Source of the DNA: Clostridia bacterium
Lineage (GTDB): Bacteria > Bacillota > Clostridia > Christensenellales > UBA1242
DNA: 64,000 nt
Assembly: GCA_045598865.1 (NCBI GenBank)
Contig: JAZRVA010000058.1
Coordinates: 15,300-79,299 of the forward strand
Reading direction: 5' to 3'
The position numbers and the translations under genes are program-made. The notes beneath the pieces were generated by a model. It was not told where the DNA came from. It did not search any database and worked only from the letters and a program-made list of their open reading frames with translations. Shown piece after piece: positions 3,325 through 22,601 of the stretch. The stretch's first letter is position 1. Each line of letters opens with the position of its first letter.

Positions 3325-3508
3325 GTTTGCTTTTTTGCAATATGGTGCTGTTTTTGGTTGTAAAAACCCTTAAAAACGGCTAAACATAAGCAAAATAGGG
3401 CTTTTTTATTAAAAAAATGGTTAAATTTGTTAGGAAAACTAAAAAATATATGTTAAAATTGGGTAACACTAAAAAAGTGGAACCAAAATAAAAGGAGATT
3501 ATTCTATT

Positions 3509-3781
3509 ATGAACAAAGGTGATGTTGTAAGCGCAATCGCAAACAAAGCAGGCTTTACACTTAAAGATGCAGACGATGCATACAAAGCATTTGTTGCAAC
3601 AGTTGCAGAAGCACTTAAAAAAGGTGAGGAAGTAGCACTTGCTGGCTTTGGAACATTCAAAGTTAAAACAAAAGCAGCAAGAAAGGGCATCAACCCACAA
3701 ACAAAAGCTGTTATCACAATTCCAGCAACAAAAGCACCAAGTTTTAAATTTGGCAAAAGCTTTAAAGATTTAATTAAATAA
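3509..3781 (+). CDS. hup: DNA-binding protein HU
   Basis: The 90-aa product MNKGDVVSAIANKAGFTLKDADDAYKAFV...GFGTFKVKTKAARKGINPQTK is a near-canonical HU/IHF fold sequence. A strong aaaaggaga SD is present, and an extended -10-like tgttaaaat lies at 3451-3459. Confidence 0.92.
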   Translation: MNKGDVVSAIANKAGFTLKDADDAYKAFVATVAEALKKGEEVALAGFGTFKVKTKAARKGINPQTKAVITIPATKAPSFKFGKSFKDLIK

Positions 3782-3804
3782 GTTTAATAAAATCAAATAA
3801 AAAA

Positions 3805-3840
3805 GCACCTGTTTGCAGTTTGCAAGTGGGTGTTTTTTTT
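3805..3840 (+). terminator. Rho-independent terminator of hup
   Basis: 12-bp stem cacctgtttgca / tgcaagtgggtg (with G-U pairs), 3-nt loop, followed by T8 (3833-3840). Confidence 0.8.
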
Positions 3841-3865
3841 GTGCAAAAAAATGTTTTAAAAACGC

Positions 3866-4185
3866 ATGATACTTTCTTTTGCTCGGACAAGAAAGCGTTG
3901 CCAAAGAGCCCGCCACGTCGTGGCACAAGCGTTTGGTTGCAAGGCAAATAAAATTTGCCACAGGCAACACTTATGCTTGACCACTCCTTTATCCCACAAC
4001 TCACGGTGGCTCGTTGTGGGAGCCCTTAAAGGCGATTTCCCCCGGAGCCCCTTAAAACGCTTTCTGATAGGTTGTAAAAAATTTGTAGAGTTTGTGTTTA
4101 ATGTGAACAAAAAAATTAGTATTTTGATTTCTGCATTACATTTAGGGGAAAGTGGTGTGCAAAATTTTGTGGCAAAAAAGGGATT
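3866..4185 (+). repeat. Degenerate copy (R0) of the hairpin-repeat element family
   Basis: Same component order as the element at 22255-22522. It has the ctttctt/aagaaag hairpin (3872-3895), then aaagag plus a small hairpin gccac/gtggc (3912-3924). An 8-bp hairpin cccacaac/gttgtggg follows (3993-4020), then the box ttcccccggagccccttaaaacgctttctgataggttg (4037-4073). It ends with a decayed R-type end cattacatttaggggaaagtggtgtgc..ggcaaaaaagggatt (4133-4185). Confidence 0.5.
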
Positions 4186-4534
4186 AAAAGAACACAATTG
4201 TTATGCCGGAATTTAGGTTTTTTAGGTCTGAATCTACCAACAAATTTGGGTAAATTTTTGAGTAATTTTTAAAGGTTTTTCCGCTTCTTGCCAACGCTTC
4301 GTTGGCAAAAAAATCGGCAATTTTTCCTTGCTTTTTTAGGCGTTGCAGTAGTGTGGGCAGGGCCTTTTTTATTTGCCCGCCAACCCCACTTGAACCATAG
4401 CCGTGAATAATTTTTAGGCCGTCAATTTTGGGTTTTATTAGTTGCAAAATTTCAATTTCGGTTTCCACTTCCGCCAGGGCTTGGTCCACTGTGAAAGAAC
4501 CATTTTCCACATTGATTGTTTTAAAATTTTCCAT
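4184..4534 (-). CDS. Smr-like (MutS2 C-terminal type) small nuclease-domain protein, 116 aa
   Basis: MENFKTINVENGSFTVDQALAEVE...LKIIHGYGSSGVGGQIKKAL...NSGITIVFF resembles the Smr core (IIHGxG, C-terminal G.T.V). The canonical DLHG is replaced by VENG. The ORF-track extension to 4834 is only translated repeat DNA, so the start is placed at the ATG at 4534. Confidence 0.55.
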   Translation of the reverse strand: MENFKTINVENGSFTVDQALAEVETEIEILQLIKPKIDGLKIIHGYGSSGVGGQIKKALPTLLQRLKKQGKIADFFANEALARSGKTFKNYSKIYPNLLVDSDLKNLNSGITIVFF

Positions 4535-4540
4535 ATAAAA

Positions 4541-4569
4541 ATTATAAAATAAACGCCAAAAATACACAA
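4541..4569 (-). promoter_or_regulatory. Candidate sigma-70 promoter of the Smr-like gene (possibly giving a leaderless mRNA)
   Basis: The minus strand reads TTGTGT - 17 nt - TATAAT - 6 nt - ATG. There is no SD between the -10 and the start codon. Confidence 0.4.
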
Positions 4570-4585
4570 ATATTTTTTGTGTTTT

Positions 4586-4977
4586 AACCCTTTGGTGCGT
4601 TTGCACCAACCTTCCCCTAAAGGGGACACTGAGAGTGAAAGTTGGCAAATTGCAACCGTGCCTAAAGGGGACACTGAGAGTGAAAGTTGGCAAATTGCAA
4701 CCATGCCTAAAGGGGACACGAAGAGTGAAAGTTGGCAAATTGCAACCGTGCCTAAAGGGGACACTGAGAGTGAAAGTTGGCAAATTGCAACCGTGCCTAA
4801 AGGGGACACAGGAAGGAGAGTTGTGTTTTTCCACCGAGTCCCTAAAACGCTTTCTGAGAGGTCGTGAAAAATTAAAAAGTGTACCGTTTGGGAAAGAGAC
4901 GAAAACTTAGCCAACAATCAATCTGTGTCCCATTTAGGGGAAGGTGGTGGGCAATTTTTATTGCACACCAAAGGGTT
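4586..4977 (+). mobile_element. MITE-like non-coding element R1 bounded by inverted hairpin ends
   Basis: Left end (4586-4629) is aaccctttggtgcgtttgcaccaaccttcccctaaaggggacac. Right end (4925-4977) is its imperfect reverse complement, gtgtcccatttaggggaaggtggtgggcaatttttattgcacaccaaagggtt. The interior holds a 45-bp array plus the conserved box ttccaccgagtccctaaaacgctttctgagaggtcg (4829-4863). TTTGTGTT occurs on both flanks (4576-4583 and 4978-4985). Confidence 0.55.
4616..4810 (+). repeat. 45-bp tandem repeat, 4.3 copies
   Basis: The unit is cctaaaggggacactgagagtgaaagttggcaaattgcaaccgtg, starting at 4616, 4661, 4706 and 4751, with a partial unit at 4796. Units differ by 0-2 substitutions. 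The period is a multiple of 3 and at least four reading frames stay open. Confidence 0.95.
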
Positions 4978-5195
4978 TTTGTGTTGTAACAAAAAGCTGA
5001 TTTCGCCCAATTGGACGGCGGGTGCCAAAATTGCCACAATCCGCTAAAAAAGCGGGAAGTATAAAATTTTTAAAACTATTTTTGTTTTTTTGTAAAAATG
5101 TTTGGTTTTATGCACAAACTATTGTAAAATATTACTTGTAATATTATATATTGCGGGCGTGTATGCACATGCGCGAGCTTAAAATGCGCAAATGT

Positions 5196-5371
5196 AACCC
5201 TTTGGTGCTGTTGCACCAACCTTCCCCTAAAGGGGACACTGAGAGTGAAAGTTGGCAAATTGCAACCGTGCCTAAAGGGGACACAGAGAGTGAAAGTTGG
5301 CAAATTGCAACCGTGCCTAAAGGGGACGCAGAGAAATAGTGATGAAAGCACAATTCCCCTAAATGGGACAC
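5196..5371 (+). repeat. Element copy R2 in the leader region of giant gene 1
   Basis: L-type end at 5196-5239 differs from R1 only in the hairpin loop. The same 45-bp unit occurs 2.3 times (5226-5330). An R-type core in flipped orientation, cccctaaatgggacac, follows at 5356-5371. There is no complete right end. Confidence 0.7.
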
Positions 5372-5412
5372 AAAATGTTTTTTTGCAAAGAGAGTTTTTA
5401 TAAAAAACTAAT

Positions 5413-5443
5413 GCACTTTCTTTTGCCAGTTATAAGAAAGTGC
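5413..5443 (+). promoter_or_regulatory. Conserved 10-bp-stem hairpin (HP1) in the leader of giant gene 1
   Basis: gcactttctt-ttgccagttat-aagaaagtgc. Homologous hairpins lie at 22255-22285 and 3872-3895. There is no T-run after it, so it is not a classical terminator. Confidence 0.5.
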
Positions 5444-5509
5444 AAGATGTTTTTAAAAACAACTTTTTGAAAAAAGGTGTTAGAAAAATTTTGTTTGAGG
5501 TAAAGTTTT

Positions 5510-8500
5510 ATGAAAACAAACATTTTTAAGAAAATTTTAAAAGTCGTTGCGGGAATGGCAGTTGCGTTGGCCATGGTTTTATCCAACCCTTTGGTGCTGT
5601 TGCACCAACTTTCCCCTGCAGGGGACACGGAAAATGGTGGGGGGAGTTTGTATGCAAGTGCAAGTTCTGCCTCAAACCCAAATGTTGGCGCTGTTGCAGG
5701 CGTAAGTTCTTTGCAGGACTTGCTTGTTAAAACAACATTAACAAACAATGGATATAAAAATGATGGCACTGCAATAACAGATGATTTAACGACACAGGAC
5801 TATGTTTGGCTGCCAAAAAGCGGCTCTGCCAGCGATTTAACGGCTATTCAGGGCATGGTTACAAACAGCGATGCTGGCAGAATGACCACAGCCACCGAGT
5901 GGGCCCTTGCTAACAACAGCTACGTATATGATTGCTGCACAACTAGCTCACCATATTACTGGCTGCGCTCTGCTCCTTCTGCTTCTTATGTGCACCGTGT
6001 GTACTACTTTGGCAGTGTGGTTGACACCTATGTGTACTCCTCCTACGTTGCGGCGCGTCCCGCTTTGCAACTCAATCTTGCATCTATAATCTCCGCACGA
6101 AGTGCGTTGGGCATTGAAATTGATGCAACTGCTGGCACAATAATCATTCCGCAAGTTAAATACCCTCAAACGCTGGTTGACACAACAAGCGCTTTGGCAA
6201 CAACGTTAAACACCCTGGGCAACACAGACAGTTCCACTAGGGCAGTTAGTCCTTCTGGTGGAATGCTTGCCACAGGGGTATCCTATCCTGGCTACGACAG
6301 CAGTTACAAGGAATACTATTATGATGGAAACTACTATGTTCACGCTAAAATTAACAGATACTCGGGCTCGGATTCGTTGCCTTTTGCACAAGAGCAAGAC
6401 ACTGCCACTGAAGACCCAAGCACTCACAAGGTTACTTGGACTACTGCCGATGATTTGGCCAATGGCAAGTATGCATGGTTTAAGGTGGAGCCAATTGTAT
6501 GGCATATTTCTAACTTGAGTGAAATTTTAAGTGATATAAATAACAACAACACAAGCACCACAAACACAATGTATGTTATATCAAACCAAGCAATTGTGGA
6601 GATGGGACAATTTTATATCAACGGCAGTGATGCTTACCGCAGCATGTGGCAGAACTCCCGCTTAAGGGCATACTTAAACGGCTACAATTTGTTAGAAGAA
6701 AACGCAACAAACGGCAATGCAACTTACAATGCTGCGCTTGTTACAAACAACAATGCTAATTTTGACTTTTCTGGGCCAGGAAAGGGCTTTTTGCAAACTG
6801 TTTGGCATGAGGCTGTGCCTGCTAAGGTTATTTTTGACCCAGTGGGGGGAGATAGCTTTGTTGCATTACAATCAGCCTTGAATGTGGCAAGTGTTCAAAA
6901 TGTTAGGTTTGCATCAACTTTAACTGTTGATAATGCTTTTGTTTCTGCAAATGGGTCAACAATAGATTTTAAGGGCAAAACTCTTTCTGGGGTTGGTATA
7001 AACAACTGCTTAATTAACATAACAACTTCTTCTGATGTAACAATTGCAAATGCTAATTTTGCCGATTGCCCTTATGGCGCGATAGTGTCAACCGGCACTG
7101 GAAAATTAAATGTTCAAAATTGCACATTTACAAATTGCTATGTGAATTATGAACAAACGGTTACTTCAACTACAGTGGTGGAGAACAAGGCGCAAGGTGG
7201 GGCTATTAAAGTTACGGGAGATTTGAAGGCCACAAACTGCAATTTTGTGGGGTGCTATGCAAAGGCAAGCGTTACTGCAACTGGCAGTGGGGTGGTTGCA
7301 ACTGTTAGCAACCTTGCCCAAGGCGGCGCAATTTATGCCAAACCTGCCTCTGGCACAGCCAATGTGGAACTTACAAACTGCACATTTGACGGGTGTTATG
7401 CACAGTATTCTCAAACTTTAAACGATAGCGCCACGGCTAGCAAAGATTCTGTGGATTGTGGTGGAGCTGTGTTTGTTGAAGGTGAGTCAACGATTACAGA
7501 CTGCACTTTTACAGGTTGTTATGCTGCCGATGGTGGAGCAATTAATGCAACAACCACAAATGTTAAAGCATGCACCTTTACGGGGTGTTATGCCAGCTCT
7601 TCCGCTGGAGCAATTAGGGCAACCACACTTGAAACGCACAACTCAACCTTTGAGGGCTGCTATTCCCAGGCTGGTGGAGGGGCTGTGAGGTGCACAAACG
7701 CAAGTGTTTATGATACATCTTTTTATTCATGTCGCTCAAATAGTAGTGGTGGAGCAATACTTGCAATTACACTAAATCTTAACAATAGTTCATTCAACAA
7801 TTGTTGTGTTACTAGTGGCAACTCAGGTGCAGTTTATTGCGGAAGTTTGTATGGCGACGGCAATAAATTTACTAATTGTTATGCACAAAGTTATGGTGGA
7901 GCTATAAATTGTTCTGATGGTATACTTGAAATTAGTAATACATTGTTTGACAATTGCTACTCACAACTGTCTCAATATCAAGGCGGGGCAATTTCCACCA
8001 CAAATGGCTCTTACAAAAAGATTGTTAATTGCCAGTTTTACAACTGCTATTTAAACAATGCAAAAAATACAACAGACACTGGTTATGGCGGTGCTGTGTA
8101 TGTGGCAAACAATAGTTATACTTCACCAGGGGCATGTAGTGCCGATGTTAGCATTGTGGGGTGCGTGTTTGGCAAGTGGGTGGATGCTAATGGTGATGGT
8201 GTGGTGGATGCAAATGAAAATGAAATTTTTGGCAACAAGGCTAAATATGGCGGCGCGTGCTACATAAACACCACGGGCAATGTTACCATTGAGGATAGCA
8301 CATTTGTGGGCAACGACTTTAATTACAGCGGGGAGGTTTTTTTTAACGTGAACTTTATGGGTGCGGCACTTTATGTGCCTAGCGGAAATGGCAAAAACTT
8401 GATGCTTTCTAACTGCGTGTTTGAGCACAATGGATATGGGGTTATCTCTGGCTCAGATAAAGGCATTGGGACTTTGTTTGCAAGTGGTTATAAAACATAT

Positions 8501-11500
8501 ATAACAAACTGCGTGTTTGATGACTGCCGTGGAGGAGTAGCGTCTGCGCTTAAAATAAATGGAAGCGGAAATTTTGTTATGAGTAACACTATAATTAAAG
8601 ATACAACAACTGGTTATGGTGGGCTTGTGGATGTTGGAGATTTTAACTATCTTAGTGTGAGCAATTGTTCTTTTAGTGGTTATAAAAATGGGAACCATAG
8701 GAATGACGCTAAAACTCTTTACAGATTTGCAGGCAATACAGAAATTGAATTTAAAAGCAATATCATTTTTAACCATGATTACACAAGTACTACTGCGAGT
8801 GGCACTTGCGTTTCGCTTGACTCGGTAACTGGTACGGTTAAGAAGATTGAAGGCAACACCTTTGAACAAAACAAAAGCTTTACAAATGTGCTTAACGTTT
8901 TCAACAGCTATAGAGTGCAGAGCTACTTGAAAGATAACAAATTTGTGAACAACACAAACAAAGATGGTGGTGGGAACATTGTTAATGTTAACGTATACAC
9001 GTATAACAGTGTCACGTTGGATGGGGGTGACAGATTGGTGGTGGAAGATTGCGTGTTTGAGGGGAATAGTGGCAGGGCGCTTTATGCCGGGGCGCACATA
9101 AACACAATTAAGAACTGCACGTTTAGCAACAACACGCTTGCTAGCGGCAACGGCGCGGCAATTAATTTGCCTAAGCCAACGGCAGGTTCAACTGGGTTGA
9201 CAGACCCACCTTATCTCAAAACCAGCGAGAAAAACCAAATTTTGAATTGCAAGTTTAGTGGAAATTTGACGTCAGCTAATGATTCGCTGGGTGGCGCTAT
9301 TTATTCTATTGAGAATAGGGTTGACATTGTTTCTTGCCAGTTTAGTGCAAATCAGGCAAAATCCGCAGGAGGTGCTATTAGAGCTGATATAACAAATTCT
9401 GACAATAGAGAACACTGTTTGATAAGTATTTCAAATTGTCAATTCTATGCAAATGTTGCTTCTAACGGGGATGGTGGTGCTGTTTCATCTACTAACAAAT
9501 CTGAGTGTGATGGATGTTTGTTTGAGAAAAATTCCGCAAGAAAAGGCGGCGCCGTTTCTATGAACTTTGCACCGACGTTTAAAAATTGTAATTTTTATGA
9601 TAACTATGCTACAACTGAAGGTGGGGCAATTTTCAGCGGAAGCAGTGTTTCTCTTACCGATTGTTTGATTTCCAACAATTATGCTGGTACAAATGGTGGT
9701 GGTGCAAAAGGGAACGCATTTTCAATTAAGGGTGGAACACAAATTATTAACAATTATTGCGGTTCCTCTGGTTTTGGTGCGGGTGTTTATGTTAGTTATA
9801 TTGGCTTTACATTAGTTCCTAGTGCTAAGGCCATTGTTATTAATAACAATTTTGGCAATGCTGTATGGGATGACACAAACAAAAAAGTTGAGAGTTATGA
9901 CGAAAACAAACCATCAAATGTTTACAAAGTTGACCCTTATATGATTGGATTTGACTCGTCATATTTTAAATATGGCAAACCTAACATTGATGTTGGATTT
10001 TCGTTTAACAACCTTGACATCCAAAATCATATTGGTGATGGCAAGGATTATTGTTTTGTTGTACATGAAACCGAATGGGCTTATTCTGATATTTTAGAGT
10101 GTTTGCACCCAGATGTAACAACAGTTGAAATTACTAGTGGTGATAATGCCGGAATTTATGATTTGGTGCCATACTATGATAGCGCTAAATACATGTTAAA
10201 AATTATCAAGCAAGGCAGTGACAACATTGAATATGTTGCAAGCGGGTTTTATGGGCCTTATGACGGCTGGTGGCACACGGTGGATGTTAAGGTGGTTAGC
10301 CCAGATAGTGGTTACACAATAAAATATAGCAATGCCGAGAATGGCACATTTAGTGCAGATTTGGTGGAAAACCAAACTGTGTTTAAAGATGTTACGGTCG
10401 AAAGAACGGTGTGGTTCACCATTGAGGCTAGTGGCAAAACCACGGTTAAGGACAGTGCAAAAGTTACTATTATTGCAATGCCAACTCAAATTATTTTAAG
10501 TTCTGCCAAACTTACTGCCGATTTTGGCACGAGTTTTGCCGTTAACACATCACTTAACGGCTATTTAACTGGGGCTTTTGTTGTGGATGCAAATGGCAAC
10601 AATGTTGCGGGGGATTTCTATTTTAGCACAGCGCAAACCATGAGCATGCAAAGTGGTGCTATTAAGGCATTTGGTGGCAACTTGACGTTTAAACCAAGCA
10701 ACTCTAACTTTGCTGCACCTACTGCTGTGGCGGCAAGTGGAATTGCTGGGGCTGTGGTTTACACAGATTTGTGGTATTATGACGGCTATTTTTACAACAC
10801 ACTTGCCAGGGCTGCAACTAAGAGTGGAGAATCTATTACAAGTGACACAACTTATAGGGTAAGCAAGGCAGACAATGGTGCAACACTTACGGCCATGCTT
10901 AAATTTTTGCCTGCAAATGCAACGGTTTACTTCTTGACTGCTTATAACGTGGCGGCAAACGAAACTTTGGAAATTGGCACAAACAATTTTGTGTTTACCA
11001 AAATCACTGATACTAATATAGTTGGTATTATTGGTAATACTAATAATATATTTAGTATACAAAGCGGCAAAACCCTTACCATAACCACCGACAAATTTGG
11101 GCGCTTAACCATTTGCGGTGTGGGAACAGCTTCAAACAATCAGGCACTTATTGCAAACGCGGGAACACTTACTATTGATGGAAATGTGGTGATTAGTGCA
11201 AACAACACCACCGGTAACGCATCTTTGAAAGGTGCGGGAATTAGCGGGGGCACGGTGAATTTAACGGGTGTGACGCTTACTGGGCTTGTGGCGGCAGATT
11301 GCGCGGCAATTTATGCCAGCGGCAATTTAAGTTTGACAGACGTGGTTGTGAACAACTGCACAACAAACGCAAACAACAGCATTGTGTGCACAAATGGCAC
11401 GGCAACAATTAACTACTCAACAATTTCTGGCAACAGCGGCAACAACAGAAATGACGTTTTAATTAACGGCGGTGGTTCTGACGTGGTGCATGCAATAAAC

Positions 11501-14500
11501 GGCAGCAACATGGATAGTGTTTATTTTGCATCTAGTGCTGGCGGAACAATCAACCTAAGTGGAAATGTGCAAATTCCAAAAATGAGCTACTATTTTTATG
11601 AAAGTTCAACCTCTGGCTTTGCAGTTTACAATGTGGGGCTAACAGCCGCAAGCAGAATAAAACTAAATGCCACAAACTCCACTGTTGTGGGCACATATGC
11701 ATTGCGCACGGCGGTTTATAGCCTAGATGGCATTTATGGCAAAATTTTTAGCCTTCTCAACTCTGGCACGGGCATTGGCGGGCTTGGCATTTCTGGCGGA
11801 TTTATGGTGGTGCTTGCCACAAGTTCATCTTCCACAGAAGATGAAGAAGACGAAGAAGATGAATACCTTCGTGTTTTACCAACTGGCTTGCAAGAGGTGG
11901 AGTATATTGAACGTAGTTCTGGCACCATTACTTTAAACGCTAATTTTAACCCACAAACTGACATTTTTGAATTGGTCTATTCCTCCAATGAATTTTTTTG
12001 GTGGCCATATGGGATGTGGACATCAAGTAATTGTTCAGTATTTACTATTAATGGTGCAAGTCAATACTATAGCAATTTTAATGTTTCTTCAAAAACAAGA
12101 CTAACATTTGGCAAATCTCGTATTAGACTTGAAAACCTGTCGTCTGGTGCTCAAACTGGCACGTCAAATTCAGCATGGGGGACACAAACTTCTTCAAGTT
12201 TTGAATTTCTTTCGGGGAATTATTATGGATTTAAGGTTTGGTCAAATGAAATTTTAGTTCATAATCTTGTTCCATGTGTTGTTAAAGCAGATCAAACATT
12301 TACAGATTCAACAGATACAACATATAACGAGAATAAAGTTGGCTTTTATGATGTATTAACTGGAATATTTTATTGTGGTTCTGGTTTTTCTGCTAGCGCA
12401 ACCACTGGTTTCTATGAAGAAATTTACTGGGATCCAGCAAACACTAGCACAAATGCAGATGATGCAAACAATGGTTCGCAGTATGCGCCAGTGCTCAGTT
12501 TAGACAAAGCAGTAAAGTTGGCAAAACAATATGGCGCGGTTGTAAAGCAACTTAGCACTTTAACCGTTAGCACCGAAACCACCCTAGACTTTAAAAACGT
12601 GGTGCTTGGCAGAGCCAGCGGGTTTACTGGGGACCATTTGAGTGTTTCCACCACCGATGCGGTAACCGTTAACAACGTGCGTGTGGATGGGAATTATACA
12701 ACAGTGGGGGATCTGTTTGCATATAAAATTTCCACAGTGGCAGGTGCAAATGTAACACTTAATAACTTTAAAATGGACACTTTGACTTATGGTGGAATTA
12801 AATTTGCGGGAGATTCAACAACCAAAACAGCTGTGCTTAATATTAACAATGCAAAGATTAACAGCAGGTGTAATTCTATGTCAGACAACGATGAAAAAAG
12901 GTGTATAAATATTAATAACACAGAAACTGTAACCTTAACAAACTGCGACCTTAGCGGCAGTGCACAAATTTATTGCAGTGATGGCACATTGAATATTAAC
13001 AACTGCAACTTGCATGATAACTGTTTTGGCTCTGGCACGCAGGCCGTTCCTGGTGGGGCTGTAAGAGCCGCAACAGTTGTGGCTAAAAACTGCAAGTTTA
13101 TAAACAACAAAACAAGCAAGTCTGGTGGGGCGATTTATGCAAGTTCCGTAAATGCTACAAATTGCACATTTAGTGATGGAACAGTTGGTTATAATGTACA
13201 TGGTGCTGGCATTTGTTCATCTGGCAATGTAGTGGTGGAAAATTGCAGGTTTGAAAACTTGGCTTGCTCAACTTCGGGCGATACGCATGGGGGCGCAATT
13301 TCTGCTAATGGAACTGTTACGGCAAAGAGTTGTCAGTTTATTAAAACTGCGGCATACCAAGGCGGTGGTATTTTTGCCGGTGGTGACGTGTATTTAGAAA
13401 ATTGCGACTTTGATAAAATATTTAAATTTTACAGTGCAACTAATCACTGGGGTGCTGCATTTGTTCATGCTGGAAGTAACAAAATAACTGCAATTAATTG
13501 CACGTTTACAGATTCTTGGGCTGGGAAAAGTATTTTTCAATGTGGTGCAATGGTTATGGATAACTGTATTATTTCAGGTTGCTCAAATGGCACATCGTAT
13601 GGTAGTTGCTCGATACAATGTTCTTCAATTGAAGCCACAAATTGTACATTTATAGACAACAATTGTACTATAAATGAAAAAGGTATAATTTACTGCACTG
13701 GAAATGTGACACTAACAAATTGTGATATTTCTAGAAACACAACAAGAGACACGATAATTTTTGCAGACAACGCCTCTGCAAATGTGGTTATTAAAGACAC
13801 AAAGATTAATAACAACACTGTTACAGGACAAGATATTGGGCAAAATGGCTCTACAAACTGGGTGCTTAACTTTGCTGGTGGTGTGTATGTGGCAGGAACG
13901 GCCAACATAACAAACAGCGAAATTTGCAACAACTCTGCAACCAGAAAAATGACGGTTAACAACAATAGTGGTGTGGAAATAAACTGTGTTGGTGGGTTGT
14001 TTGTTAGGGGCGAAACAACATTAAGTAACGTAAAAATTAACAATAATGCATTTTCAAGCACAAACATGAATGTGCACGATAATACAACAAAAACCGAGAT
14101 AAACACTATTGGTGGTCTGCTTGTTAAGAACACACTAACTTTATCTAATGTGGAAATTAACAACAACACTGTTAATGTAACCGAAACATTAACAAATAAT
14201 GCGTCACAATCTTACACTGAGGTTGGCGGTTTACGTTCCACTAGCACGGCAACATTAACAAATGTTGAAATTTGCCACAACACATCCACAAACGGCATTG
14301 GTGGACTTTCCACCGGCGGTGGCACCTGGCTTAATGTAACCGTTGGCTATAACACGGGGTATACATATGGGGTTGGAATAACTTCTGCAACGCAAATAAC
14401 CAACTCTAACTTCTGTTACAACACTGTTACCAGAAACACAAGTGAATCAATGTCTGGATTGCATTTGAATGCAGGTAGCACATTTACAAACTGCAACTTT

Positions 14501-17500
14501 TTTGGTAATAAAAACGGAAACTGTTGTGGTGTTCATTATTCATGGAGTGGAAATGGTACTTTTTATAATTGCTCTTTCTATGATAATTATACAACAAGCG
14601 GTCATAACTATGGTGGTTGTATTATTGCAACAAACGGAGATTTGTTGAAGATGTATAATTGCAAGATATACAACAATATAAGCACAAATATGAATACTAT
14701 TGGAGTGGCCAACCAAAGTGCTTATTTCTACAATACTGAGTTTTATAATAATTCAACTAGTGGAAGTTATGTGGTTGGTAACAATTATAACTGTTCAACT
14801 GTGTGGTTTGAGAATTGTAGTTTGCATAATAATAAAGGTAGAATTATAAATTCTTATACAAATGCAAATAATCTTCTTACAATGATAAATACATCCGTGT
14901 TTGCAAATAATGATACAAATGAAAATAATTATTCCATTTCACTTTCAAAAGCCAATATAGACAATTGTCAATTTTACAATAATACAAAAAACGGTTCAAA
15001 TCCATTTATTAGAGGTGAAACAGGGGATTTTTCTGTTACAAATTGCAGATTTTACAACAATAGAGCAACCCTTATTAATAGGGCTGGTGGGGTGATAACC
15101 AATTTTTCTAACAATTACATTTCTGGCAACACTGGCGAATATATAGTTAGTGTTTCTGGAACTGTAACCAATTTTGAAAACAATGTGTTTGCAAACAACA
15201 AATTAACCAGCAACAGTTATGGTGTTGTTTACATGCCAACTGGTTCTACTGTAAAGGGTTGTGTTTTCTATGGCAACACAAACGTTTCTACGGGTGCAGA
15301 CAGCCCAATTATTTTGGTTGGCAGTGGCAGAACTGTTACGTTTGACAGTTGCTTGTTCTACGAAAACGCAAGTTTGGGCACTAGTGCCACTGCAAACAAG
15401 GTGTTTAAGTTTGTGGGCGAGGCAAACTTTAACGCTTGCCAATTTGCAAATAACTACTACTATGATTCCAACCTTTCAACCACCAAAAAATTGGCAATTG
15501 CTAGTGTTTATGTGGACGGCGGCGTGGCAACTATTGACGGCTGCGTGTTCACCCTAAACCCAAGCACTGATTTGCCTTTTGGTAATTATGGCGTGTTCTA
15601 CGTGAACAGTGGCGAACTTAACATATATGGCAAGTTTGAAAAACTTGCGCTTGGTGAAGCTAATTTGGTGGTTGTTGATGGTGGCGTGGCAAACGTTTAT
15701 GCCCAAATTTTAAGCAACACGGTAAGTGTGGCAATAATTAAGCAAAGCGGTGGCGAACTTAACTTAAAGGGCACTATAATTAGCGGAAACACTGCCACCG
15801 CGGGCAGTATTATTGAGCAATTGGGCGGAGATTTGAACATACAATCTGCCACAATTTCAAATAACACTTCTAGCCAAGGCAGTGTGATTGACGCAATTGG
15901 TGGAGATTTTAGCGCAACGGGCAGCACAATTGCAAACAACACGGCAAGTGCGGGAGCTATTTTAAAAACTGGTGCGGGTGTGGCCAAAATTTCTGCCTGC
16001 ACAATAAGCGGCAACACCACGCAAAGTGGCACAATTTATACGGGTGGCATGCTTAATTTAAAACAAAACACAATTGCAAACAACACAGGCGTAAACGGTG
16101 GCGCAATATGTGTGGGCAACGGCGGTGTGTGCGTGTTGGAAAGTGGCACACTTGCCTCCAACACTGCAACAAGCGGCGGGGCAATATATGTTGAAAACGG
16201 CGGGTTGTTCACCTTGCTTGCCGGTGTTGTGGGAGAAACAAACACAGCCTCTGGCACAAATACCTCCGAGGGCGGTGGCGCAATTTATGTGGCTGAGGGC
16301 GGCAAGGCGGTTATAAACGGCGGCGAAGTTGTGGGTAACACTGCCAAGTATGGTGCAGGAATTTATAACAACGGCACCCTTGTTGTTAATGACGGAAAAT
16401 TTTGGAAAAACAAGATATCAGTAGCTAGTGGCATGGGTGGTGGAATTTATAACTCTGGCTTGGCAACCATAAATTATGTGCAACTTTCTGCCAACAATTA
16501 TATAAGCACCAGTTCTCAAACAATTTATGGTCTTGCCCTTGCAAATAGTGGAAAACTTAACATGCTTGGTGGAATTGTTGAAAATAATTCATTTGATGCT
16601 TGTTCAGGTGCTGTTTATTGCAATGAAGGCACAGCAAACATTAGTGGTGTAACATTTGATAACAATGCAAATTACTTTGGTAGTGCAATTAATGTAAAAG
16701 CAACTGCAACTGCGAAAATTGCAAACTGCACATTTAATTTGCCAACTTCATATCGTCACCCAAGTGGTGGCAATGGTAGAGGTGCTGGATTATACTTGGA
16801 AGGCAACTTTGAAGTTGAAAACTGCCATTTCTCTGGCACCGGAACAAGCAACACAAAATATAATGGTGCTGTTTACATAATCAACACCGCTAGTGGCAAA
16901 ATGACGGACTGCACGTTTGAGGATATATTCTTTAATGGCTGCTCTGCTTTTGCAGGCACTGTGGGCGCTGGCAAAACCGTGGAAATTGTGGATTGCACAA
17001 TTTCGGGGTGCAGAAAAGACGGCACAGACAGCAGTTCAAATGTGTTACAAGCAGACGGCGAGGTTATTATTGATAATTTGCATTATGTTAATAACTATGG
17101 AACGAACTATGCTGGCTTTAATTTAAGAGGGTCTGGCAGTGTTGTTATTCGCAACAGCTTGTTTGAGGGAAATTACACTACCGCAACAAATGACAATGTT
17201 GAGTTTGTATGCGCACTTGCTTTGGGTGGCACGGCAACAAAATTGGTTGACAACTGCGTGTTTAAAAACAACAATAACTCAAGCCGTTCGGTTTCTACTT
17301 TGTATATTTCAAATACTGCACAGGATGTTACAATAAAAGATTGCACATTTGAAAACAACACCTGTTATAGTGTCATTTATACAAAAACAGCAAGTGGCAC
17401 TGCAGGTAGTTTAAAATTTGTTGGCAATAACACAATTGAAAATAATAATGTTAAAAGAAAAGCAATAGATTTCGTAAATGAAAGCACAAGTGGTTTTGGC

Positions 17501-20500
17501 ATTGAACTTGGTTTTGGTGGAAAATTGTATATTTATGACAACAAAAACGCTGGTGGTGCACAGGTTAACTTTGGTGGGTTTGATAATTTGATTAACAACG
17601 GCACTTACAATGCCCGTGTTTTAATTGGAGGCCTTGCAAATGGCAGTAAAATTGGGCTAACAATTGACGATAATGCGAAAGAAGACTTATTTGTGGGCAC
17701 AAACCCAATTTCTTCCTCCGACTTTGCATGCTTTGTAAGTGATAGCGCAGATTATGTGATATATCTAGACAGCAAAAACAACAAAATAAAATATTCCACA
17801 ATCGCCTCAGCAACTGTTGTGGCAAGTGGTGAGGTTGTGTTTGCCGATGGCTACTATCACGGCTTAACAAACAGCAACTTCCAGGTTTATGATTCTGGCA
17901 CATTGCTTGACCAAACTGACTTTGTGGTAACATACAGCACACAAGAAGATGGAATTTATACGTTAGTAAGCCCACAATATGCTTGGGTTGCCCAGAATAC
18001 CGTGTATTACAGAGTGTATAAAACTGCGGATTATGAGGCAGACCCAGATTCCGCCCCATATGCAAGCGGCAGCACAAAAGTGGTTGTGGCGCAAAGATAT
18101 TTGTCGGCCTTAGTGTTGCCAAAAGCGCGCGCAGACGTGGGCGCAACACTTGCCACTGTCCTAATTTTTGGTGGCGAAGTGGTGGATAACTTTGGCTCCC
18201 CAGTTGCAGGCACTTGGGCGTTTGCAGATGGCACGGCAATAGCCACAAATGGCGGAAAGTTTGATGTAACCTTTACCCCAAGTGTGGCGGGTGTTTACGC
18301 AAACGAGGGTGGCATTTTGGGCGCAATATCTGTGGAATATAAATTTGATTTGCTTAGATATAAAGTGGATGAAGATGACTCCTCCAAAACCGCTTTCTAC
18401 TCTGGTGCAACAAAAACAAACCTAGAAACATTACAACAGGCAATGCCACTTGTGGCAAATGGCGGCAGAATTGTGTTTGACACAAATTACAAGTTTGTTT
18501 CATCCGAAAGTGTAACTACCTCCGGCACGGTTTATATCTGCAAGGGTGTAGATTTAAGAGGCAATATGTTTGTGGTCTCCGATGAAATGGAAAACTTGGC
18601 AGTAACCTTCTCTGGCAACATTGTGTTTGATGGCGCGTGGGTGGAAGGGATTAATTTAAATAAAGAATTAATATTACCAAAAACTTTCCAGCAAGTTGAA
18701 TATTTGGAAGGCACAGGTACTCAATATATTGAAAACATATGGGATATAGGTGACCACACAATTGAATTTGACATAATGCCTATTGATATGAGTGGTGGAT
18801 TTAGCAACTGGTTATTTGGTTTATATGATACGTCTGGAATAGGGTTAGATCCGTGGACTTATGGTATAACAATAAGTAATTCTACATTAACTCAAGTCTA
18901 TGCTGGAACAGTAACTCCAACTAGAGCAGCAGAAGGTGTAAGAGAAAAATATACATTTGTAACCAGAGCAGGAGCTTATTCTACTGAAAAATTAGGTTTA
19001 TTCTTTGAAACTGGATATTACGATAGAATTTTTAAAGGTAGAGTTTATTCATTTAAAGTTAAAAGAACAAGTGACGATGAATTGATACGAGATTTAATTC
19101 CTTGCTATCGTAAATCAGATAATGTAATAGGTATGTATGACATTATTAATGATGTATTTTACACTAATTCGGGAATTGGAACATTTACAAAAGGGCCAAA
19201 TGTTGGCTCTCACAATTGGGGTGTGGCGTATGATGACCGCACACAAGAAGTGCTTGATGCCGGCTTACTACCTGTTGATTATATAGAAAGTAATGGCACA
19301 CAATATATTGACACGGGTTATGTGCCTAAGAGTGATACTATTGTTGAAATAAGTTTTGAGAAAACAAGTAACAGAACACAGTATGATCAAATATTTGGGC
19401 GATTTGATGATACAAACACTAAATTTTATTTAGAATTTTATGGCGGGCACATGTATCAGCAAATTGGGAATGGTAGCTATACTTATTCTAATGCTCAACT
19501 TAATACCAGATATGATGTTACCATTTCTACAAAAAAATTTACCGTTAATGGAACAGAAAAAACGGGAAACCTAACCTTTACTCAAAACAGTTCCACCTTG
19601 CATTTGTTTGGAAGAAATGGCACCAACACCAATAACACTCAATACAACGCTGCAATGAAACTTTATTATTTTAGAGTGTATGAAGGCACCACACTTGTTA
19701 AAGACCTTGCTCCGGCTTACAACCCAAGCACTGGCAAGGCAGGGCTTTATGACTATGTTTCCAAAGCGTTTATGACAAGTGCCAACTCTGCAGACCTATC
19801 ATATGGCTCTGTTACGCTAGCAAATTTCGCTGGCGCTACTACTACTACTACTAGCTCTTATTTAGCCATAAACGGAAACAACAATTATATAGATACTGGC
19901 ATTAAATTTAACGACACCTCTAAAATTGAAATAACCTTTAGTGGCACAACCGGCGGCCAGGGCAACGGCATGGTGTTAACTGGAAACACCGGCACTAGCA
20001 GCAGTGATCATAGCGGTTATATCAATGCAAGTGGTTGGGGCTATAGTGACTTTAATTCTAACGGCACAAGAACTGGTGAGAATATTGGCAGTTTTGCCCA
20101 AGTTTTTGATGGTACTAAAAAAACCATTACTTTTAGTGGTTATAGGCATAGCAACAATTCAGCAAAAATCTGCACTGGTTATTGGGTTGATAGTTATTAT
20201 GGCAGAGAAATGTATTGGTATAACATGAAAATTTGGAACACATCTGGCGATTTAATCAGAAACTATTATCCTACAGTATCAGGTGGGCAGGGTGGCTTCT
20301 GTGACTTAATAACCGGCGAGATAAGACTTTGCACAGGAACGGCAGATGTGGCAAATTCCTATATTGTTCCAGAACATACTTATAGTAGAATTAATCTTAA
20401 CGAAGGATACAATGGTTCCGGCTTATTTAGAGTTAAGGAGGGTAGCACGCTTAACTTAGAAGGTGGTGTGAGGTTTGAAAATTGGAATAGAACAGACGGC

Positions 20501-21163: not shown

Positions 21164-21169
21164 AAATTT

Positions 21170-21328
21170 AAGTGTCCCATCAAGGGGGTTGCTATATGAT
21201 TTATTAAGTGTCCCCTCAAGGGAAAGGGGGTATATAAGTTAAAAGTGTCCCCTCAAGGGGAAGGGGGTATATAAGTTAAAAGTGTCCCCTCAAGGGGAAG
21301 GTGGTAGGCTTTTGCCTACCAAAGGGTT
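21170..21328 (+). repeat. Tandem array of the R-type core (about 36-37-bp period, three units) ending in a complete R-type end
   Basis: The unit aagtgtcccctcaaggggaagggggtatataagttaa starts at 21170 (diverged), 21206 and 21243. The complete end gtgtcccctcaaggggaaggtggtaggcttttgcctaccaaagggtt follows at 21282-21328. The array begins 7 nt after the giant-gene stop codon. Confidence 0.85.
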
Positions 21329-21332
21329 AAAA

Positions 21333-21689
21333 ATGTTAGAACTAAAATACAACCAAAAAAACATCAATAAAGGCAAAGAGTTAAGAAAAACCATGACCAA
21401 AGAAGAACGTAAACTTTGGTTTGAATTCTTAACAAACTTGCCTATAAAAATTTACCGGCAAAAACTTATTGGAAATTTTATTGTTGATTTTTATTGCCAC
21501 AAAAAGAAAATTGCAATTGAAATTGATGGCAGTCAGCACTTTTTTGATGACGAAAAGCACAAAGACGAATTGCGGACGGAATATTTAAATTCGCTTGGAA
21601 TAACAGTTTTGAGGTATTCTAATTTGGATATTTCTAAAAATTTTAGTTCTGTTTGCAAAGATATTTATAATAAAATTTTTGAGGATTAA
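21333..21689 (+). CDS. DUF559 (Vsr-like, PD-(D/E)xK fold) endonuclease-domain protein, 118 aa
   Basis: ELRKTMTKEERKLWFEFL...YRQKLIGNFIVDFYCHKKKIAIEIDGSQH...ELRTEYLNSLGITVLRYSNLDI matches the DUF559 consensus (LR...T.aE..LW, FRRQ.piG.yIvDF.C, viElDG.qH, vlRf.N). The start is set at the ATG at 21333. The ORF-track start at 21282 lies inside the repeat. Confidence 0.85.
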   Translation: MLELKYNQKNINKGKELRKTMTKEERKLWFEFLTNLPIKIYRQKLIGNFIVDFYCHKKKIAIEIDGSQHFFDDEKHKDELRTEYLNSLGITVLRYSNLDISKNFSSVCKDIYNKIFED

Positions 21690-21704
21690 TTAAAACTTTT
21701 TTTA

Positions 21705-21962
21705 AACCCTTTGGTGCTTTGCACCAGCCTTCCCCTAAAGGGGACACTGAGAGTGAAAGTTGGCAAATTACAACCATGCCTAAAGGGGACACGGAAAAAA
21801 AGTAAACTCAATTTTTCCAGTTAGAATATATAAACATGTGTGTGTAATTTTTTCAGTTAGAATACGAGGAAAGTTGTCCCACCTCTAAGGAAAATACTAA
21901 AACTTGTATTAATTTGTGTCCCCTCAAGGGGAAGGTGGTAGGCTTTTGCCTACCAAAGGGTT
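21705..21962 (+). mobile_element. MITE-like element copy B bounded by inverted hairpin ends
   Basis: L-type end at 21705-21747, 1.3 copies of the 45-bp unit (21734-21792), and an internal direct repeat cagttagaata (two copies). The R-type end at 21916-21962 is identical to 21282-21328. Confidence 0.6.
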
Positions 21963-21986
21963 AAAACTCGCTCATAAAACCAATAA

Positions 21987-22016
21987 AACCCGTGGTGCGA
22001 CCCACGGGTTTTTTCT
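21987..22016 (+). terminator. Rho-independent terminator closing the giant gene 1 / DUF559 unit
   Basis: 9-bp stem aacccgtgg / ccacgggtt, 6-nt loop, followed by a T-run (22009-22014). Confidence 0.8.
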
Positions 22017-22254
22017 ATTTTTATTACCAAACAAAAAACACTAAACAAAATTGTTACATGTGGCTAAAATAGCAACTTGCACAAACTTTTAACTTTTTAA
22101 AAACTTTTGGGTTTTTGTGGCAAAAAATTGCGTTTTTTGTTTGGTGAAATTGCCTTTATATAATATAATTATTCTTGTATAATTATACCCACTATGCTCA
22201 TTATAACTTTGAGGGTTAAAGTTCTTTTGCAAAAGACGTTTCAAGAAAAGCATT

Positions 22255-22285
22255 GCCCTTTCTTGTAACTGGCAAAAGAAAGGGC
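22255..22285 (+). promoter_or_regulatory. HP1 hairpin copy upstream of giant gene 2, with its loop inverted
   Basis: gccctttctt-gtaactggcaa-aagaaagggc. The loop is the reverse complement of the loop at 5423-5433 (10 of 11 nt). One stem pair is changed from A-T to C-G. Confidence 0.5.
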
Positions 22286-22293
22286 GCAAAGAA

Positions 22294-22522
22294 AACCCTT
22301 TGGTGCTGTGCACCAACCTTCCCCTAAAGGGGACACAACAAGTGTTATGTTGCCATAAAGGGGACACGGCAAGAGTGTTTGGCAAGTGCAAACATACCCA
22401 AAGGGGATGCGGAAAAAAGAAATTGCGATTCCCAAGAGACCCCTAAAACGCTTTCTAAGAGGTTAAGAAAACTAGAAAAGTGTCCCATTTAGGGGAAGGT
22501 GGTGCGAAGGCACCAAAGGGTT
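22294..22522 (+). mobile_element. TIR-bounded element R4 in the leader of giant gene 2 (MITE-like; an invertible segment cannot be excluded)
   Basis: Left end (22294-22336) is aaccctttggtgctgtgcaccaaccttcccctaaaggggacac. Right end (22480-22522) gtgtcccatttaggggaaggtggtgcgaaggcaccaaagggtt is its reverse complement apart from the loop, one indel and one mismatch. The interior has diverged aaaggggacac units and the box attcccaagagacccctaaaacgctttctaagaggtt (22429-22464). Confidence 0.6.
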
Positions 22523-22601
22523 GCAGCAATTGCACAAAAAAATAATGAGAGAGGGTTTTAAATATACAAACTTTTTAAAAAAGGTAATTTGGTAAAGAAT
22601 T

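Follow-up and report, generated by a model that had tools for sequence, protein, structure and literature searches.

Rickettsia palindromic elements (RPEs) are recurrently inserted in frame, each as a whole element (reviewed in PMC10969869). In a second kind of system, the vsp and vpma loci of mycoplasmas, the proposed recombination sites lie in 5′ untranslated regions (UTRs) and the loci carry an adjacent tyrosine recombinase (PMC2268961). Here we describe a locus that has been likened to both: a palindromic repeat module within the signal-peptide region of a giant secreted-protein gene (giant gene 1) on a 64,000-nucleotide (nt) stretch of a Clostridia genome (contig JAZRVA010000058.1, positions 15,300–79,299; hereafter, the window, numbered from its first letter). 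An earlier reading of the letters alone (the sequence-only reading) had drawn these comparisons. We consider it probable (roughly 0.75) that the 54-nt block in giant gene 1 is a tolerated insertion scar, derived from a repeat like transposable elements of the miniature inverted-repeat kind (MITEs) or repetitive extragenic palindromic (REP) sequences, that was acquired after the split from the closest sampled relative and plays no part in programmed recombination.

A repeat module in frame in giant gene 1

Giant gene 1 starts with a GAGG ribosome-binding site (RBS) and a typical signal peptide, and its product ends in a hydrophobic anchor and a basic tail. The module inside it opens with the 5′ box AACCCTTTGG, followed by hairpin 1 (5591–5597 pairing with 5602–5608) and hairpin 2 (5612–5616 with 5621–5625), both of which are intact. 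When the 44 nt at 5196–5239 were used as a query with up to three mismatches, exactly three sites were found in the window, at 4586, 5196 and 5585. The site at 5585–5628 differs from the query at 3 of 44 positions (the derived substitutions are at 5610, 5618 and 5619), and the copy at 4586–4629 matches similarly; 100 dinucleotide-preserving shuffles gave no match. To the right of the module lies a GGAAAA extension, and positions 5620–5634 are identical (15 of 15) to 21784–21798, at which GGAAAA comes after the last tandem unit of another element. In all, two elements of the window have GGAAAA after their arrays.

The repeat-derived segment occupies codons 26–42 of the open reading frame (ORF) at 5510–21163, in frame, and its translation, NPLVLLHQLSPAGDTEN, was verified. 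The match, the shuffles and the frame therefore confirm the earlier description of these codons as a left-type repeat end plus ggaaaa with three mismatches to the copy at 5196. The extent of the insert was refined by comparison with a relative (below) to 54 nt, 5581–5634, with a 1-nt ambiguity at a T. The canonical module can be read through in four of its six frames, so that survival in frame is in itself unremarkable.

An empty site in the closest relative

Relatives were found by a search with the neighbouring Smr-like protein, and two of the contigs, L065 and L066, hold orthologues of giant gene 1. The closest available orthologue is that of L065 (Logan SRR14630334), in which the Smr protein is 84% identical (80% at the nucleotide level) and is followed, 330 nt on, by a gene with a product that starts MKTNIFKKILKVVAGSVVALALVFGGINLLPQNDD...SFQDLLVRTTL and is 41% identical to that of giant gene 1 over about 305 residues. 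The start region is closer still: L065 602–694 is 96% identical to the promoter-like region at 5068–5160, L065 745–813 is 97% identical to 5484–5553 (from the RBS to codon 15), and the first 44 coding nucleotides are 97% identical. The start cassette thus stands at 96–97%, compared with 80% for the Smr coding sequence and 63–64% (nucleotides) or 41% (amino acids) for the rest of giant gene 1.

At the site itself, L065 reads GCTTTGGTTTT/TGGTGGC and the window reads GCCATGGTTTT(ATCC–module–GGAAAA)TGGTGGG. Because L065 joins GGTTTT directly to TGGTGG, the 54-nt segment is a derived insertion; the same pair of flanks occurs in giant gene 2 of the window (GGTTTTTTGGTGG). The insertion puts TTA TCC AAC ... 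GAA AAT in place of the lone TTT codon of the orthologue. The module is also absent from the distant orthologue in L066 (5,582 amino acids, with DUF6273 and β-helix regions) and from the giant gene of the syntenic contig L056, which is the orthologue of giant gene 2. The sequence-only reading had pointed to orthologues as a way of checking whether the 17–18 codons are conserved; they are not, and both L065 and L066 lack them. L065 has neither the element at 5196–5371 nor the hairpin segment of the 5′ UTR, so the window lineage has gained several repeat pieces around the start of giant gene 1. Exact-sequence look-ups of the Smr and DUF559 proteins of the window, and of the 100%-identical P0006, found no other assembly that contains them.

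How the fragment may have arrived and persisted

We propose that, once this lineage had split from the closest sampled relative, the signal-peptide region of giant gene 1 received a repeat fragment. The fragment would comprise the 44-nt, two-hairpin terminal module, flanked by 4 nt on the left and by 6 nt of element-internal sequence on the right. Three properties could explain its persistence: at 54 nt it is in phase, it is free of stops in the frame of giant gene 1, and it falls where the hydrophobic core meets the cleavage region, a place that presumably bears a change in length. The insertion would have no programmed function at the DNA level and would leave a scar that encodes 18 extra residues, either removed with the signal peptide or kept at the mature N terminus.

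The event was most likely a one-step, non-canonical one, in which templated repair or illegitimate recombination copied the left part of a nearby element. Such copying seems more likely than transposition of a whole element because the insert lacks both a right end and a target-site duplication and includes element-internal sequence, its right edge being GGAAAA and not the right module. A less parsimonious route is the insertion of a whole element and then a deletion with exact restoration of the flank. The source was likely to have been local, judging from two matches: the variable hairpin GCTGTTGC of the in-gene copy is otherwise found only in the copy 389 nt upstream (5196), all other copies in the window being different, and the 15-nt match is to the junction of array and centre at 21784–21798. 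With 3 differences in 44 nt and both hairpins preserved, the insertion appears to be recent; it is also fragmentary and single. A fuzzy scan of the giant genes for older, degraded copies of the module found none.

Some observations count against this account. No source was found for the four bases (ATCC) at the left edge, and three substitutions are too few for a test of selection on the insert. The comparison has a single close orthologue, on a 1.7-kb contig, in which the linker past the site has diverged, so that the edges of the insert are set by the short matches GGTTTT and TGGTGG; giant gene 2, however, has both.

Consequences for the signal peptide

The insert is located between the hydrophobic core, VVAGMAVALAMVL, and a G/S/A-rich region with an ASA/S site after residue 51. 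All three substitutions are nonsynonymous and fall in two codons, CCT>CTT (P34L) and AAA>GCA (K37A, two changes). Where the canonical module would encode ..HQPSPKGD.., giant gene 1 encodes ..HQLSPAGD.., with a longer hydrophobic stretch, and P34L and K37A together create the only new small/small (−3,−1) site, the cleavage-like SPA/GD, after residue 37. From the codon changes, P34L and K37A are suggestive, without statistical weight, of an amelioration of the signal peptide after the insertion.

A stronger claim would be that the insertion has been exapted, having been selected as a new c-region with the candidate cleavage site SPA/G or as a double hairpin in the mRNA that, 75 nt into the ORF, tunes early elongation or the targeting of the 5,217-residue secreted protein. 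Every change from the source copy alters an amino acid, two of the changes share one codon (AAA>GCA), and the result is higher hydrophobicity and a (−3,−1) site that the canonical module would not encode; both hairpins are also intact. Yet three substitutions have no statistical power, the same positions vary in other members of the family, and the orthologue and the paralogue function without the insert. We consider exaptation improbable, and regard the 18 codons as more probably a tolerated scar.

A proposed recombination site in the signal-peptide region

The sequence-only reading compared the module with the vrs sites of mycoplasmas, at which an invertase swaps one expression cassette between alternative gene bodies, and placed such sites after the signal peptide; the proposed vsp and vpma sites are in the 5′ UTR, at −1 to −72 (PMC2268961). 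If the module were an active site of this kind, pairing with other modules would switch giant gene 1 off and on, by a deletion that joins the direct copies at 5196 and 5585 (with loss of the 5′ UTR, RBS and signal peptide), by inversion against the inverted copy at 4925–4977, or by exchange of the cassette with giant gene 2, in the manner of vrs sites or invertons.

The layout lends this idea some appeal. All nine modules in the window cluster at the two giant surface-protein genes, direct and inverted partners of the in-gene copy lie less than 700 nt away, and conservation of the start cassette greatly exceeds that of the gene bodies. An inverted repeat at 4906–4942/5354–5390 (37 nt, 84% complementary), with a perfect 18-nt part at 4925–4942/5354–5371 (GTGTCCCATTTAGGGGAA), brackets 411 nt around the promoter-like region at 5068–5160, an inverton-like layout; the motif recurs many times in the vicinity, and no invertase or flipped allele is known. 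Relatives also vary in how the neighbouring Smr gene is ordered and oriented, but the relatives with a rearranged Smr (L065–L070) have no modules at all, so these rearrangements are independent of the modules.

Further evidence speaks against a switch. No integrase, invertase or transposase turned up in the 64-kb window in Pfam scans that covered the DUF559 ORF and the ORFs of at least 100 amino acids other than the giant genes; a gene farther away would have escaped them. These scans identified LepB, RadC, DegV, Smr-like, DUF559, GLUG, MurC, YDG, Sua5, PEBP, HAD and NuoE/F-like proteins, together with three ORFs that have no family match; an HU gene between DegV and Smr was recognized by similarity to L056. 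Apart from the in-gene module, no copy of the repeat runs into an ORF on either strand, and none is fused to an alternative, promoterless gene body. Giant gene 2 lacks an in-gene site, and in the closest orthologue the start cassette and the gene body are joined as in giant gene 1, with no site. The partner modules differ in the hairpin, which makes up about a third of the site. The cassette swap is thus not supported, and we judge an active site at 5585 to be unlikely, slightly more so than exaptation. A wider proposal makes the module a functional recombination or regulatory signal, in place of selfish DNA, that has spread to the control regions of giant adhesin-like genes of rumen and gut Clostridia, with the copies at 5585, 5196, 4925–4977 and 5354–5371 forming a phase-variation switch that would delete or invert the cassette of promoter, RBS and signal peptide and would be served by a recombinase encoded elsewhere. 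To this we give a shade less credence again.

Start regions of the two giant genes

Each of the two giant genes has its own RBS, ATG and signal peptide, and motifs like those of the promoter-like region of giant gene 1 are also found upstream of giant gene 2 and of the L056 giant gene. The N terminus of giant gene 2 had been called paralogous. That holds for the start cassette and fails for the proteins, which are about 25% identical and only in scattered repeats. Clear statistical support for nucleotide homology is confined to the interval between about −70 and +30 of the ATG, so the paralogy is limited to the cassette. Two other statements of the sequence-only reading stand: the 5′ coding region of giant gene 2 is free of modules, and cassette and repeats are rearranged relative to each other, which is correct as a description. 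The element of giant gene 2 is situated between the likely promoter and the RBS; giant gene 1 likewise has an element there, plus the extra fragment after the signal peptide.

The start cassettes of the two genes are about 80% identical, though their bodies are about 25% identical. This conservation reflects either strong constraint or exchange between genomes and genes. Homologous hairpins with 10-bp stems are also present upstream of the giant genes, at 5413–5443 and 22253–22283, and the 11-nt loop of one (TTGCCAGTTAT) is the reverse complement of that of the other (GTAACTGGCAA), as would result from either inversion of the loop or an opposite orientation of the segment. The hairpin at 5413–5443 is not present in L065.

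The limited homology between the genes also raises the question of whether the module marks a fusion junction, at which an intergenic copy was trapped when a duplicated start cassette was joined to a separate DUF6273-type body. A protein search with the N-terminal 500 amino acids of giant gene 1 returned only five cytoplasmic DUF6273 proteins, about 30% identical; these distant homologues begin near residue 62 of giant gene 1, and some modules in related contigs lie a few nucleotides past stop codons. This explanation is largely refuted by L065 and L066, which already join a signal peptide to the same DUF6273/β-helix body without a module; the fusion is therefore older than the module, and we regard a fusion scar as very unlikely. 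Least credible of all is a repeat-induced chimeric join within giant gene 1, for, although the source looks like a draft assembly, with a 105-kb NCBI contig, and further copies of the repeat lie close by, the in-gene copy has three private substitutions, the insert is exactly in phase, both flanks are collinear with the orthologue and the module is just 44 nt long.

Structure of the repeat family in the window

The nine modules in the window all lie at 4.5–5.7 kb or 21.1–22.6 kb, around the two giant genes (Table 1). A module starts with the conserved box AACC(C/T)TTTGGT (AACCCTTTGGT) and continues with a perfect hairpin 1, the stem of which is free to vary in both sequence and length (5–21 bp). 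The 3′ part consists of a conserved ACC(A/G)(A)CCTTCCCCT, a short loop and (A)GGGGACAC, which closes the small hairpin 2. Hairpin 1 is formed by all 30 of the 30 folded copies and hairpin 2 by most; in six folded copies, the minimum-energy structure pairs the 5′ box with the 3′ AAAGGG(T) and does not form hairpin 2. At the first variable pairs of hairpin 1 (stem pairs 4–5), the combinations G–C/A–T and C–G/G–C/A–T/T–A occur.

Table 1 Positions of the giant genes, the in-gene insertion and the neighbouring repeats in the window
Feature	Position	Strand	Description
Conserved promoter-like region, giant gene 1	5068–5160	+	96% identical to L065; putative promoter
Giant gene 1 (5,217 amino acids)	5510–21163	+	Signal peptide, DUF6273, β-helix, C-terminal transmembrane anchor and basic tail
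Part encoding signal-peptide n- and h-regions	5510–5580	+	5′ of the insertion; MKTNIFKKILKVVAGMAVALAMV..
In-frame insertion, 54 nt (18 codons)	5581–5634	+	ATCC, 44-nt module and GGAAAA; empty sites in L065 and giant gene 2, gap in protein alignment
Repeat module, 44 nt, left-end type	5585–5628	+	AACCCTTTGGTGCTGTTGCACCAACTTTCCCCTGCAGGGGACAC
Giant gene 2 (9,260 amino acids)	22602–50384	+	Start cassette homologous to that of giant gene 1; coding sequence without module
Complete element	4586–4977	+	Left module, four 45-nt units, central CCCTAAAACGCTTTCTGAGAGG, right module
Element, 176 bp	5196–5371	+	Likely 5′ UTR of giant gene 1; left module and two-and-a-bit 45-nt units, without right module
Right-type 37-nt tandem units	21172–21328	+	End in right module; directly after stop of giant gene 1, 4 nt before DUF559 start
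Complete element	21705–21962	+	Downstream of DUF559; GGAAAA junction at 21792–21797 matches in-gene copy
Complete element	22294–22522	+	Between promoter-like region and RBS of giant gene 2

Opposed modules form the terminal inverted repeats of 229–392-bp elements (4586–4977, 21705–21962 and 22294–22522), which hold 45-nt tandem units with the hairpin-2 motif at the end of each and have the central motif in common. Overall, elements span 176–392 bp, with terminal inverted repeats of 43–53 nt, variable internal tandem units and no coding capacity. The tandem arrays at 4630–4809, 5240–5329 and 21172–21282 extend from the hairpin-2 side of the modules; left-side units (TGAGAGTGAAAGTTGGCAAATTGCAACCGTGCCTAAAGGGGACAC) measure 45 nt and right-side units (GTGTCCCCTCAAGGGGAAGGGGGTATATAAGTTAAAA) 37 nt, with the hairpin-2 motif in each. 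Possible target-site duplications flank the element at 4586–4977 (TTTGTGTTTT at 4576–4585 and TTTGTGTTGT at 4978–4987, 10 nt with one mismatch) and that at 5196–5371 (AAATGT at both 5190–5195 and 5373–5378). On direct reading, none was seen at 21705–21962, at 22294–22522, at the L056 elements or at the in-gene fragment.

Several modules border the two small genes of this region. The Smr gene of the window is flanked by a decayed right-type module (4139–4183) and by the left module at 4586. DUF559 (a Vsr-like endonuclease) is closely enclosed between two modules, a right one upstream and a left one downstream, both in the window (interval 21282–21748) and in L056 (interval 9521–9037). From the right module to the DUF559 ATG there are 4 nt in the window and about 44–47 nt in L056, in which the TAA stop of DUF559 overlaps the first AA of the downstream module. 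Between the downstream modules of the two loci there is a compensatory G–C to A–T change in the stem. We set aside DUF559 and Smr, which modules bracket here and in L056 alike, as candidate mobility genes of the family, because both are merely syntenic (L056) and L065–L070 have Smr without modules. The order of HU and Smr between DegV and the giant genes (window 3481–4534) varies among relatives: HU> Smr> in L056 and L070, Smr< HU> in L066–L068, HU> Smr< in the window and Smr> gene 1> in L065. In L069, Smr and DegV are oriented as in L066–L068, and the contig ends before any HU gene.

The family beyond the window

Our census comprises 31 modules, 9 in the window and 22 in related contigs. The copy in giant gene 1 is the only one of the 31 inside a real gene; the other 30 are outside real genes, within own-strand stop-free spans of up to 120 codons or spurious ORFs of 82–97 codons. 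The hosts are uncultured Clostridia metagenome-assembled genomes (MAGs) and metagenome contigs, for example the buffalo-rumen RGIG8191, CAMORY01, the ODAI contigs and Ga0310786, in which single modules, tandem modules and inverted doublets with 12–15-nt spacers are found. Each genome has its own stems (GGTGC..GCACC here, GGTAC..GTACC in the Ga0310786 contigs), a pattern expected under concerted evolution, and in L056 two elements are also bounded by terminal inverted repeats.

Five ODAI and CAMORY contigs carry the inverted doublets (L014 3922–4048, L023 3459–3597, L051 12927–13067, L057 6395–6540 and L059 447–583). These doublets join two diverged types of module (AACCTTTTGGTAC.. and AACCCTTTGGTAA..) with their 5′ boxes facing each other, and the spacer is A/T-rich, often with TATA(A/T)T. 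In L060 (10313–11455), lone modules lie 1 and 4 nt past the stops of two consecutive genes on the same strand, an intra-operon position like that of REP sequences. The idea that modules always follow stop codons was rejected; it is true of about six copies (L056, L060, L045 and window 21705) and not in general.

A scan of genome collections with the hairpin-2 core gave mostly chance matches or a different repeat of the Oscillospiraceae. Only L014, L023 and L026 belong to the same family; L029 has the core beside ccaaagggt. The different repeat is widespread in Faecousia and other Oscillospiraceae MAGs (L002, L003, L013, L018, L019, L037, L039 and L040). It has a 20-nt core, CCTTCCCCT(T/C/G)GAGGGGACAC, in common with the module family, continues as cccagggtggc.tctcttgcc....ggcaattcacct and lacks the AACCCTTTGGT box; by its motifs, it may be a related or a convergent family.

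The module family itself seems to be undescribed, although it is of a familiar, MITE- or REP-like kind. Rfam searches of the whole window at gathering thresholds, with permissive E-value scans of 3800–5800 and 21100–22700, matched no family and gave only two tRNAs and generic hairpin noise. A DNA search with a full element matched nothing in plasmid or phage records, and a literature search by motif strings returned unrelated primers only. An integron attC identity was rejected, as the two conserved boxes lack complementarity to one another.

Significance

The locus offers a clean, datable case of an intergenic hairpin repeat that has become coding sequence, with the empty site known in a relative, in one of the rare positions where a secreted protein could take 18 extra residues without harm. 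It also brings to light a seemingly undescribed repeat family of uncultured gut and rumen Clostridia, with conserved boxes around a freely varying perfect hairpin. The family has inserted repeatedly between the likely promoter and the RBS of giant surface-protein genes, where it could affect expression, and such insertions could complicate the assembly and annotation of MAGs. If the site did recombine, it would represent a new phase-variation device for giant adhesins.

Comparison with known systems

The resemblance to the Mycoplasma pulmonis vsa/vrs (HvsR) and Mycoplasma agalactiae vpma/Xer1 systems lies in a repeated site near the end of the signal peptide and in a second large surface gene next to the first. 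Unlike those systems, this locus has no adjacent tyrosine recombinase and no family of promoterless bodies each preceded by a site; both genes have their own expression signals, and only one has the site.

With RPEs, and with intragenic insertions of MITE and REP sequences (ERIC, BOX and the MITEs of Anabaena), the insertion shares a dispersed hairpin repeat that sits in frame, is free of stops and adds a peptide. The RPE-like interpretation of the sequence-only reading therefore holds in kind (a dispersed hairpin family, an ORF kept open, absence from orthologues) and not in frequency or extent. In-frame insertion is frequent for RPEs, whereas here it is a single case among 31 copies, and in place of a whole element there is a terminal fragment (44 + 10 nt) without a right end. 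The fragment is in a signal peptide instead of a folded domain and has no sequence relation to RPEs.

In the structure of the modules, the family recalls the REP, REPIN and BIME sequences of Gram-negative bacteria: short structured modules, single, in tandem or in inverted doublets with a short spacer, which are mostly intergenic and in some cases (L060, L056) directly follow stops within operons. In contrast to REP sequences, there are two hairpins with long conserved single-stranded boxes, the module starts with AACCCTTTGGT and has no GTAG head, the hairpin-1 stem is 5–21 bp and the host is an uncultured Clostridia lineage. No gene for RAYT (a Y1 transposase) was seen in the window, in which the genes bracketed by modules are the Smr-like gene and DUF559.

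Classical MITEs (Correia/NEMIS, bcr1 and RUP) differ in that target-site duplication is inconsistent here, with no parent insertion sequence or transposase found. In form, the two kinds agree: the elements are non-coding, 176–392 bp in length and bounded by terminal inverted repeats of 43–53 nt, and at both giant genes they sit in the likely 5′ UTR, between the promoter-like region and the RBS.

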